Sequence record: NC_054912.1 | DNA from: Escherichia phage vB_EcoM_F1 | Length of the DNA: 64,000 nt | Direction: 5' to 3' (one strand) | Shown here: positions 7,194 through 8,549 of the stretch, piece after piece | How the letters are laid out: every line of letters begins with the position of its first letter | Numbering within the stretch: the first letter of the stretch is position 1 | The notes under the pieces: model-generated | What the model was told of the DNA's origin: nothing | Databases searched by the model: none | The model's input: only the letters and a program-made list of their open reading frames with translations | Position numbers and translations under genes: made by a program

Positions 7194-7270
7194 TGGTCGA
7201 GACAGAAGGATTCTAACCTTCAACCTACGGATTAGAAGTCCGTTGCTCTATACAATTGAGCTATGCCCCG
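7194..7270 (-). tRNA. tRNA-Arg (anticodon UCU)
   Basis: manual cloverleaf: acceptor CGGGGCA/UGUCUCG with two G-U pairs, D-stem GCUC/GAGC, anticodon loop CU-UCU-AA, T-stem GAAGG/CCUUC, encoded CCA; T-loop atypical (TTAGAAT). Confidence 0.7.
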
Positions 7271-7273
7271 TAA

Positions 7274-7939
7274 TTAAAATTTCATTTTTCGACCTTTAAA
7301 CCATCCTTCTGGAATTGGGTCAGTTTTCTTAATACGTTTAGAAACTTTTTCATCTAATGAATGAATCCACATCATACCAAATTGGGAATTCTTTTCACCT
7401 TTCTGGTGATTATTTTTAGCGTGAATTTCTTTCATTTTATTAATAGTTTCAAGAGTATGATGCTTATTTAAAAATCTGCTATTATTTAAAAATTTTTCCC
7501 TGTATTCAGGAGTTGACCACAAGCGTTTAAATACATTTGAACCATGTTTACGATATTTTTCTTGAAGTAAAATATCATTTTTAAAACGTGACTTAAACGA
7601 TTTAGCTCCTTTTAAACTAGCGTCTTTCTTCTGGTTTAGCATCTCAGGAATATTTATATGATCCCATCCGCCTTCACCGCCAAGTTTTAAATTATACACA
7701 TCTGGTCTATTTAAAAACTCTTCTGTGACAATATTTTTCTCGGCTTCAAGCATAGATTCTTTATCATCAAAATATTCTAATATTTCTTTAGAAAAATTTT
7801 CTATACCATACCTGTCTTGGGCTCTTTTTAATAATTTACCAGAACCCATATATCCATCATCTAAATTTTCGGTAGAATGCACACCAATATAAATTTTATT
7901 ATTAATTTTATTTGTTATTTTATAAGTGTAATGGAACAT
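7274..7939 (-). CDS. segB: GIY-YIG homing endonuclease (SegB-like) within the tRNA cluster
   Basis: 221 aa; N-terminal GIY-YIG module YKITNKINNKIYIGVH..DGYMGSG; same size and position as T4 segB. Confidence 0.85.
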   Translation of the reverse strand: MFHYTYKITNKINNKIYIGVHSTENLDDGYMGSGKLLKRAQDRYGIENFSKEILEYFDDKESMLEAEKNIVTEEFLNRPDVYNLKLGGEGGWDHINIPEMLNQKKDASLKGAKSFKSRFKNDILLQEKYRKHGSNVFKRLWSTPEYREKFLNNSRFLNKHHTLETINKMKEIHAKNNHQKGEKNSQFGMMWIHSLDEKVSKRIKKTDPIPEGWFKGRKMKF

Positions 7940-7980
7940 AAATATCTCCTATTTCTAAGAGTATTTATGTTCCCAAAATA

Positions 7981-8052
7981 TGGCCCTGGGTGGAATTGAA
8001 CCACCATCTGGCGATTATGAGTCGCTTGCTTGAACCTTCCAGCTACAGGGCC
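7981..8052 (-). tRNA. tRNA with anticodon CAU (T4 tRNA-Ile position; Met not excluded)
   Basis: manual fold: acceptor GGCCCUG/CAGGGCC, anticodon loop CU-CAU-AA, T-arm GGUGG-UUCAAUU-CCACC; no encoded CCA. Confidence 0.7.
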
Positions 8053-8053
8053 T

Positions 8054-8129
8054 TGGTGCTGATTGACGGAATCGAACCGCCGACATCCTCATTACAAGTG
8101 AGGTGCTCTACCTACTGAGCTAAATCAGC
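8054..8129 (-). tRNA. tRNA-Thr (anticodon UGU)
   Basis: acceptor GCUGAUU/AAUCAGC, D-arm GCUC-AGUAGGUA-GAGC, anticodon loop CU-UGU-AA, T-loop UUCGAUU, encoded CCA. Confidence 0.85.
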
Positions 8130-8136
8130 GAAATTA

Positions 8137-8223
8137 CGGAGGCGATAGGATTTGAACCTATGAGTCGCCGGAGCGACTGCCGGTTTTCAAGACCGGTGCA
8201 TTAAACCACTCTGCCACGCCTCC
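8137..8223 (-). tRNA. tRNA-Ser (anticodon UGA), long variable arm
   Basis: acceptor GGAGGCG/CGCCUCC, anticodon loop CU-UGA-AA, long variable arm, T-loop UUCAAAU; no encoded CCA; 2 nt after tRNA-Pro. Confidence 0.8.
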
Positions 8224-8225
8224 AG

Positions 8226-8299
8226 TCTCCGCGGCAGGATTTGAACCTACGACATTCTGCTCCCAAAGCAGACGCTCTACCAAACTGAGCTACACGGAG
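8226..8299 (-). tRNA. tRNA-Pro (anticodon UGG)
   Basis: acceptor CUCCGUG/CGCGGAG, D-arm GCUC..GAGC, anticodon loop UU-UGG-GA, T-loop UUCAAAU; no encoded CCA. Confidence 0.8.
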
Positions 8300-8309
8300 T
8301 AAATTAAAT

Positions 8310-8383
8310 TGGAGCGGATAATGAGAATCGAACTCACATCATCAGATTGGAAGTCTGAGGTAATACCATTATACGATATCCGC
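8310..8383 (-). tRNA. tRNA-Gly (anticodon UCC)
   Basis: acceptor GCGGAUA/UAUCCGC, anticodon loop CU-UCC-AA, T-loop UUCGAUU, discriminator U, encoded CCA. Confidence 0.8.
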
Positions 8384-8388
8384 AAATT

Positions 8389-8475
8389 TGGTGCGAGAAG
8401 TGGGACTCGAACCCACAAGGAAATCATTCCGCAGCATTTTAAGTGCTGTGCCTTTACCAATTTGACCATTCTCGC
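8389..8475 (-). tRNA. tRNA-Leu (anticodon UAA), long variable arm
   Basis: acceptor GCGAGAA/UUCUCGC, anticodon loop CU-UAA-AA, long variable arm, T-loop UUCGAGU, encoded CCA. Confidence 0.8.
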
Positions 8476-8476
8476 G

Positions 8477-8549
8477 CTGGGAATAAAGGACTCGAACCTT
8501 TGCATCCTGGAATCAAAATCCAGTGCCTTACCAACTTGGCTAATTCCCA
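8477..8549 (-). tRNA. tRNA-Gln (anticodon UUG)
   Basis: acceptor UGGGAAU/AUUCCCA, D-arm GCCA..GGC, anticodon loop UU-UUG-AU, T-loop UUCGAGU; discriminator G, no CCA. Confidence 0.75.

Follow-up and report, generated by a model that had tools for sequence, protein, structure and literature searches.

What does an arginine transfer RNA (tRNA) gene encode if its T-loop lacks the C at position 56 and its D-loop lacks GG? Such a gene, tRNA-Arg(UCU), lies at 7194-7270 on the minus strand of a 64,000-nucleotide (nt) stretch of Escherichia phage vB_EcoM_F1 (NC_054912.1); we refer to this whole stretch as the window. It is one of eight tRNA genes at 7194-8549 and is parted from the other seven by a gene for a homing endonuclease, segB. 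A first-pass annotation, in which the eight tRNAs had been folded by hand, suggested that this one may be a structurally unusual tRNA or a decoy for host anticodon nucleases. From comparing it with its relatives, we think that it is a working arginine tRNA with a compensated elbow pair, U19:A56, and we would put the probability of this at roughly 80%.

ARAGORN finds exactly eight tRNA genes, all on the minus strand, that span 7194-8549, and Rfam (RF00005) calls the same eight that had been folded by hand, each of them at 59-75 bits (E of 1e-10 to 1e-14), where the gathering threshold is 29. All eight have the features of elongator tRNAs under RF00005: a 7-bp acceptor stem, a 7-nt anticodon loop with U33, a 5-bp T stem, and a 7-nt T-loop. 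tRNA-Arg has the second best score of the eight (69.2 bits). Its cloverleaf is the minimum-free-energy fold, and an Infernal alignment gives the same boundaries, so ARAGORN, Rfam, and Infernal all accept the gene and agree on its ends.

The acceptor stem of tRNA-Arg consists of C1-G72, G2-C71, G3.U70, G4-C69, G5.U68, C6-G67, and A7-U66. The two G-U pairs of the first-pass annotation are therefore G3.U70 and G5.U68, and it was also right about the D-loop without GG (AAUUGUAUA) and the T-loop without C56 (UUAGAAU, or TTAGAAT in the DNA, with A at 56). We considered whether the contact between the D-loop and the T-loop had been lost, and we rejected this. G18 and U55 are kept, and 19:56 is U:A, not G:C, by its sequence; as we show below, this pair covaries. 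In other words, the tRNA is unusual at positions 56 and 19, as had been suspected, but the contact is swapped rather than lost.

The elements that a tRNA needs for charging with arginine are also in place. The determinants for arginyl-tRNA synthetase (ArgRS) are A20, C35, U or G at position 36, and A or G at position 73 (PMC9976931). The window's tRNA has A20, C35, U36, and A73: the D-loop AAUUGUAUA puts an A at position 20 and the anticodon is UCU. Its anticodon loop (CUUCUAA) equals that of the host's own argU (from E. coli K-12). argU also has the same anticodon, A20, the same T-stem length, and nearly the same D-arm (GCUCAGUUGGAUAGAGC in argU and GCUCAAUUGUAUAGAGC in the window). On the other hand, argU has G15, G19, and C56 where the phage tRNA has A15, U19, and A56, and its discriminator is G where the phage has A. 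The acceptor stems are unrelated, with C1-G72, G3.U70, and G5.U68 in the phage.

In T4-like phages, tRNA-Arg alleles fall into three families, which we call the T4 type, the T2 type, and the window type. The T4 type is found in about 60 records, while the window type, at 95% identity or more, is found in 186 phage records, including RB33. The first-pass annotation had proposed a comparison with T4's tRNA-Arg. We made it and rejected the idea that the two are the same: T4's tRNA has GG in the D-loop and a T-loop of UUCGAUC, and the sequences barely align. The T2-type allele has G19:C56, and it shares with the window type an unusual acceptor stem (CGRGGCA/UGYCUCG).

Covariation gives evidence about the swap. 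In our alignment of the Arg family (13 distinct alleles and 23 pairs), 99.3% of the pair cells are standard, and 14 of the 23 pairs are changed on both sides. At 19:56, eight alleles have G:C and five have U:A, and at 15:48, seven have G:C and six have A:U; no allele has either of them unpaired. These values far exceed those of the shuffled and slid controls. The closest relative with G19:C56 is from a Klebsiella phage and is 90.9% identical to the window's allele, with differences at positions 15, 19, 27, 43, 48, 56, and 68. Six of these seven differences form three compensated pairs, namely the Levitt pair (15:48), the elbow pair (19:56), and the stem pair 27:43. All seven positions are G or C in the Klebsiella allele and A or T in the window, where the Levitt pair is A15:U48 and 27:43 is A:U. 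The changes at these three pairs would be explained most simply as compensated substitutions from G:C to A:U in an AT-rich genome. Because the identity elements are intact and the stems evolve by compensatory change, tRNA-Arg is probably functional. We infer that it is expressed, processed, and charged, and that the swap is neutral.

Two of the relatives have peculiarities of their own. In the Klebsiella phage (Roth01, locus L170), the block Arg-Leu-Thr is followed by a small open reading frame (ORF) at 1759-1851 that is annotated, as deposited, as anti-CBASS Acb1. And a relative of the Arg allele in one IMG/VR contig (L014:6009-6085, which is L027:2308-2384) has C33 instead of the near-universal U33, with an anticodon loop of CCUCUAA. 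In the same phage, the neighboring tRNA with anticodon CAU has a T-loop of AUCGAAA.

How common are such swaps? We pooled 887 unique phage tRNAs from the viral loci that we fetched. All 32 that are without C56 lack GG and carry a G plus the complement of base 56 instead (A56 with GU in 18, U56 with GA in 12, and G56 with GC in 2), while 840 of the 855 tRNAs with C56 have GG. Another 17 cases without C56, from near SegB homologues, obey the same rule. When we scanned IMG/VR for T arms with A56, we obtained 24 loci, and 21 of these are real tRNAs (Arg, Pro, Met, and Tyr, from unrelated phages), all with GU. We also scanned 185,579 genomes, one per species of bacteria and archaea (596 Gbp), for the U19:A56 pattern. 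This gave 67 hits, of which at most 5 are tRNAs, and no bacterial source for a tRNA with U19:A56 was found in that scan. So elbow swaps look like a trait of phage tRNAs, affecting about 1.5-2.5% of those in our samples. Loci that hold A56 tRNAs have a slight excess of A and T (0.40 versus 0.44, p = 0.008), but in an unbiased control set, no such excess is seen at loci with non-C56 tRNAs. In the literature, we found no paper with the terms U19-A56 or A19-U56 and nothing relevant for G19-C56 together with bacteriophage, but as our coverage was incomplete, this is weak evidence of novelty.

There is a structural reason to expect that the swap is tolerated. RNase P and the ribosome recognize the elbow chiefly by stacking against the flat surface that the 19:56 pair presents (PMC4810234), so a U:A pair should serve. 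Nevertheless, several considerations weigh against a working tRNA with a neutral swap. First, the swap may not be neutral, as U19:A56 is nearly absent in cells (at most 5 tRNAs, as compared to 21 in IMG/VR). Pressure toward A and T also acts on AT-rich bacteria, so it may not be the whole story. Second, TruB and TrmA contact C56, and the modification of U54 and U55 could differ with A56. Third, the acceptor stem has several determinants for alanine, which could compromise a pure arginine identity. Finally, going by the published motifs, C56 is within the recognition core of SegB. The last two of these lead to alternative explanations.

The alternative that fares best, although we think it unlikely, is that the tRNA genes are escaping from SegB at the level of DNA. 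segB (7274-7939, minus strand) encodes a free-standing GIY-YIG homing endonuclease of 221 amino acids (aa). Its product is 96% identical to T4 SegB over 221 aa and matches PF01541 in Pfam (GIY-YIG, 27.9 bits against a cut-off of 22.6) as well as PHROG 314 ("homing endonuclease"). tRNA-Arg begins just 3 nt past the stop codon of segB. T4 SegB is a site-specific nuclease that homes in mixed infections; it cleaves tRNA genes at the 3' end, where its site takes up 27 bp, with a core of GGTTCRANTCC, which is the T arm, and the preferred cut is right after CCAR (PMC2330249). In 2026, SITE-seq gave the motif RAWTSGAAC, which includes C56 (PMC13096335). The change of C56 to A in tRNA-Arg, with G19 to U to restore the pair in the RNA, and the loss of the encoded CCA from tRNA-Ser and tRNA-Ile would then make these genes poorer targets. 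If so, an endonuclease would be driving covariation at one of the tRNA's most conserved tertiary pairs, and the loss of CCA would be tolerated via CCA addition by the host.

Quite a few observations fit with this idea. C56 falls within the published core (PMC2330249) and within the SITE-seq motif, the encoded CCA belongs to the preferred cut (PMC2330249), and how SegB spares its own genome has been called an open question (PMC13096335). When we rebuilt the set of sites from T2-like loci, C56 was one of six invariant core bases. The T arm of tRNA-Arg with C56 restored (GGTTCGAATCCT), plus CCAA, would agree exactly with the preferred T2L site in tRNA-Asn over its first 12 bases, while the window's actual gene, directly downstream of segB, has lost the invariant C of the core (GGTTAGAATCC). 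tRNA-Ser and tRNA-Ile encode CCA in the T2-like phages that lack segB but not in the segB-bearing phages that we examined (T4, RB33, the window, and the lineage of L003 and G28), and the L003/G28 lineage is also without CCA on Thr and Gly. SegB-like matches are present in 10 of the 24 IMG/VR loci with A56 tRNAs and in 6 of 120 control loci (9 of 16 versus 5 of 57 if matched on GC content and the number of tRNAs). In the reverse test, which began with 80 loci that contain SegB homologues, tRNAs that depart from the core GTTC.A..C were weakly enriched (109 of 706 near SegB homologues versus 67 of 615 in the control, p = 0.018).

However, the same reverse test found that non-C56 tRNAs were not significantly enriched near SegB homologues (17 of 706 versus 9 of 615), and canonical T arms lie immediately downstream of many SegB homologues. 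segB adjoins canonical C56 alleles of tRNA-Arg in T4 and in phage G28, and conversely, the A56 allele is also present without segB between Ile and Arg (L006, L014, and L046). The published core GGTTCRANTCC matches the 64-kb window seven times, always in this operon (in six tRNA genes and rnaC; 0.11 matches are expected by chance). Given that seven intact cores remain, including a perfect GGTTCGAATCC in rnaC, one changed gene gives no protection at the level of the genome. Also, the enrichment of SegB-like genes at A56 loci rests on about five lineages, and linkage is expected from hitchhiking with the cassette as well. And the SegB motif boosts cleavage but is not required for it (PMC13096335).

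It is quite improbable, in our view, that tRNA-Arg has a dual identity, so that the host's alanyl-tRNA synthetase (AlaRS) would also charge it and alanine would be inserted at some AGA codons. In bacteria, the determinants for alanine are G3.U70, G2-C71, G4-C69, A73, and G20 (PMC9976931), and the Arg acceptor has the first four of these five. In a set of 1672 unique phage tRNAs, G3.U70 is present in 52 of 53 tRNA-Ala and in just 20 of the 1619 others, and this Arg family accounts for 9 of the 20. All four elements together are found in tRNA-Ala (31) and in this Arg family (6) only. But in the window's tRNA, 1:72 is C-G, not G-C, and position 20 is A, not G, and AlaRS from E. coli is sensitive to 1:72 (PMC9976931). 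ArgRS, with its strong determinants A20 and C35, would compete. Furthermore, position 3:70 is polymorphic within the Arg family (G.U in 6 alleles, A-U in 4, G-C in 2, and C-G in 1), which looks like a neutral intermediate and not a selected feature. Judging from these features, real mischarging of tRNA-Arg with alanine seems unlikely, but the presence of G3.U70 and three further alanine determinants stays unexplained.

The suggestion of a decoy, which came from the first-pass annotation, strikes us as very unlikely, and we rejected it because no feature of the tRNA speaks for it. As a form of counter-defense, the altered tRNA-Arg would withstand or sequester a tRNA nuclease of the host and would stand in for host tRNA-Arg(UCU) that had been cleaved. 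Phage tRNAs do rescue infection from tRNA-cleaving defenses, and SegB can amplify the neighboring tRNA-Tyr gene of T6 against Septu (PMC13096335). Evasion of nucleases has been stated as a general hypothesis (PMC10264068), and elbow-pair swaps are found almost exclusively in phage tRNAs. As in the known cases of counter-defense by phage tRNAs (the T5 tRNAs, and tRNA-Tyr of T6, which SegB amplifies against Septu), the window has a tRNA array with an embedded segB, which is the arrangement that allows segmental amplification in T6. But the window has no tRNA-Tyr, and the anticodon loop of its tRNA-Arg equals the host's. The proposed signature of evasion is mutations in this loop (PMC10264068), and instead we see the CUUCUAA of argU. 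The ArgRS determinants are present and the stems are compensated, and such strong compensatory evolution fits a translating tRNA, not a sponge. The load of AGA codons already accounts for the retention of the gene, and no defense nuclease that targets tRNA-Arg(UCU) or reads the elbow pair is named in the literature that we consulted.

Lastly, it is scarcely credible that the gene is decaying or that its product is a non-functional tRNA-like RNA, as it has the second best Rfam score of the eight (69.2 bits), every departure from the consensus is paired, at least 186 phage genomes have kept it, and its identity elements and its 7-nt anticodon loop with U33 are intact.

If tRNA-Arg is a working tRNA, then how does the rest of the locus look? 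Over its 2.2 kb, the region has 100% identity with Escherichia phage vB_EcoM_FN, and of the 909 phage records that match it, nearly all are from T4-like coliphages. The T4 cluster (NC_000866, 70.9-72.5 kb) agrees with the window in its eight anticodons, their order, and their strand, and it likewise has segB between the CAU tRNA and Arg, so the gene that parts Arg from the other seven is just the normal T4 arrangement. In the annotated genomes of T4 and RB33, the order is Gln-Leu-Gly-Pro-Ser-Thr-Ile, segB, Arg, rnaD, rnaC, as it is in the window. The homologues of rnaD (species 2 stable RNA, roughly 6711-6828) and rnaC (species 1 stable RNA, roughly 6566-6704) are also on the minus strand and align almost base for base with T4; for rnaD, we also aligned the annotated RNA from RB33. 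At 6492-6515, on the same strand, a strong hairpin with a T run resembles an intrinsic terminator and marks the end of the operon. The window thus has the complete order of the T4 type, from Gln to rnaC, on one strand and with a terminator. Because the gene order, the identity of SegB, the alignments of rnaD and rnaC, and the terminator all agree, the locus is, by every one of these comparisons, the classic T4 tRNA operon, which is textbook material and already known, and the window is evidently from a Tequatrovirus.

The operon is not simply a copy of T4's. The genes for Leu, Gly, and Ser are identical between T4 and the window, and Thr differs in the flanks only, but Arg and Ile are other alleles, and the stems of Gln and Pro differ. 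The window also has an extra ORF of 116 aa (6825-7175, minus strand; PHROG 3355, with no function assigned) between the CCA end of Arg and rnaD. This ORF is missing from T4 and from RB33 and shares 87% identity with an ORF located after Arg in a T2-like phage (L012). Taken together, these comparisons show that the operon is a mosaic, with a T2-type Ile, the segB cassette, an RB33-type Arg, and a T2-type ORF.

Besides tRNA-Arg, the tRNA genes are tRNA-Gln(UUG) at 8477-8549 (67.4 bits in Rfam), tRNA-Leu(UAA) at 8389-8475, tRNA-Gly(UCC) at 8310-8383, tRNA-Pro(UGG) at 8226-8299, tRNA-Ser(UGA) at 8137-8223, tRNA-Thr(UGU) at 8054-8129, and the tRNA with anticodon CAU at 7981-8052. CCA is encoded in Leu, Gly, Thr, and Arg. 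Reading the junctions bears out the first-pass annotation in that Pro, Ser, the CAU tRNA, and Gln are without it and that Pro and Ser are 2 nt apart. Pro, whose first pair is C1-G72, ends with its discriminator A8226, and then come C8225 and U8224 and the first base of Ser, G8223. In Ser, the discriminator G8137 is followed by UAA in place of CCA. The CAU tRNA ends with ...GGGCC-A and is followed by UAUUUU. Gln ends with ...CCCA-G-C: after the discriminator G8477, the first C of CCA alone is encoded (8476), and G1 of Leu is directly next to it. The state of the CCA end varies among close relatives. For example, in L003/L034 and L175 (G28), where SegB shares 81-83% identity with that of the window, CCA is changed to UAUCA after Thr and to CAA after Gly.

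The Pro-Ser precursor of T4 likewise has a few nt between Pro and Ser, no encoded CCA, and UAA after Ser. Nothing of substance is different in the window, although the stems of Pro have a few compensated substitutions. The need for CCA addition by the host, which the first-pass annotation had recognized, is established for the homologous CCA-less precursors of T4 (PMC11143913, a review that cites Deutscher et al. 1974 and Seidman & McClain 1975). By analogy, the window's CCA-less dimer of Pro and Ser with UAA is presumably a classic substrate for RNase BN, the CCA-adding enzyme, and RNase P.

ARAGORN labels the CAU tRNA as Met, but we consider it to be of the tRNA-Ile2 type. Read from its sequence, it has an isoleucine-type body (C4-G69, C29-G41, A37, A38, and A73). 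Its best matches in E. coli are genes annotated as tRNA-Ile (80.8% identity), and its T4 homologue is annotated as tRNA-Ile too, although the window's allele is of the T2 type and not T4's. In tRNA-Ile2, the anticodon CAU reads AUA once the host's TilS has made lysidine at C34.

As for transcription, our scan for sigma-70 promoters upstream of Gln found nothing above chance, and we rely on the T4 literature. On that basis, Gln-Leu-Gly-Pro-Ser-Thr-Ile2, segB, Arg, the accessory ORF, rnaD, rnaC, and the terminator would form a single transcription unit. By homology to T4, we infer that there is a single long precursor that is cut by RNase P and RNase BN and finished by the CCA-adding enzyme, all of which are supplied by the host. 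RNase P would produce the 5' ends, and trimming by RNase BN/Z-type enzymes together with the host's CCA-adding enzyme would complete the four CCA-less tRNAs.

Within this unit, segB is a selfish cassette that fits precisely into the space from the 3' end of tRNA-Ile to the 5' end of tRNA-Arg. A 41-nt RNA hairpin at 7933-7973 (minus strand) buries the ribosome-binding site (the Shine-Dalgarno sequence) and the AUG of segB. It has a predicted energy of -21.4 kcal/mol and a z-score of -5.9, and it is kept in T4, G28, and L003. In T4, Brok-Volchanskaya et al. proposed this hairpin as a translational brake on the synthesis of SegB (PMC2330249), and in the window as well, it would keep translation of segB low. 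So the window shares the protein (at 96% identity), its position, and the upstream hairpin with the SegB system as described (PMC2330249; PMC13096335).

We also noticed several other things around SegB and its sites. In rnaC, at 6578-6588 on the minus strand, there is a T-arm-like hairpin (CCGGGTTCGAATCCCGG) whose core (GGTTCGAATCC) is a perfect SegB core, and it also agrees with the preferred T2L site in tRNA-Asn over the first 11 bases of that site. In a T4-like phage without segB at this location (L016), another ORF (6275-6865) lies directly upstream of the same U19:A56 allele of tRNA-Arg. This ORF belongs to PHROG 16521 and has weak matches to HNH endonucleases and to NUMOD1. In addition, the T-loops AUCGUUA and AUCGUAA, in which A54 is combined with U58 (a swapped reverse-Hoogsteen pair), are common in phage tRNAs (for example, IMG/VR loci L056, L086, L047, and L017). 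They are found in 39 of 706 unique tRNAs near SegB homologues, as compared to 13 of 615 in the control, and they break two invariant bases of the SegB core.

What would these tRNAs do for the phage? The eight tRNAs would decode codons that end in A, including AGA and AUA, which the AT-rich phage uses heavily. In the ORFs of the window, AGA makes up 12.2 per 1000 codons, or 30% of the arginine codons, and AUA makes up 14.3 per 1000. This usage fits the usual role of phage tRNAs in supplementing those of the host.

What seemed to be a striking oddity when it was folded by hand is thus a well-studied T4 operon with a common natural allele of tRNA-Arg, and not a new system. Still, the G3.U70 pair in an arginine tRNA offers a direct test case for mischarging with alanine. 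And as C56 is in the SegB motif, and as SegB's avoidance of its own genome is considered open (PMC13096335), a possible connection between the two may be of interest to specialists. More broadly, phage tRNAs show clean four-way Watson-Crick covariation (G:C, U:A, A:U, and C:G) at 19:56, a pair that is nearly invariant in cells. If the tRNA genes of phages were indeed escaping from SegB, this would also explain why elbow swaps are found almost only in phage tRNAs.

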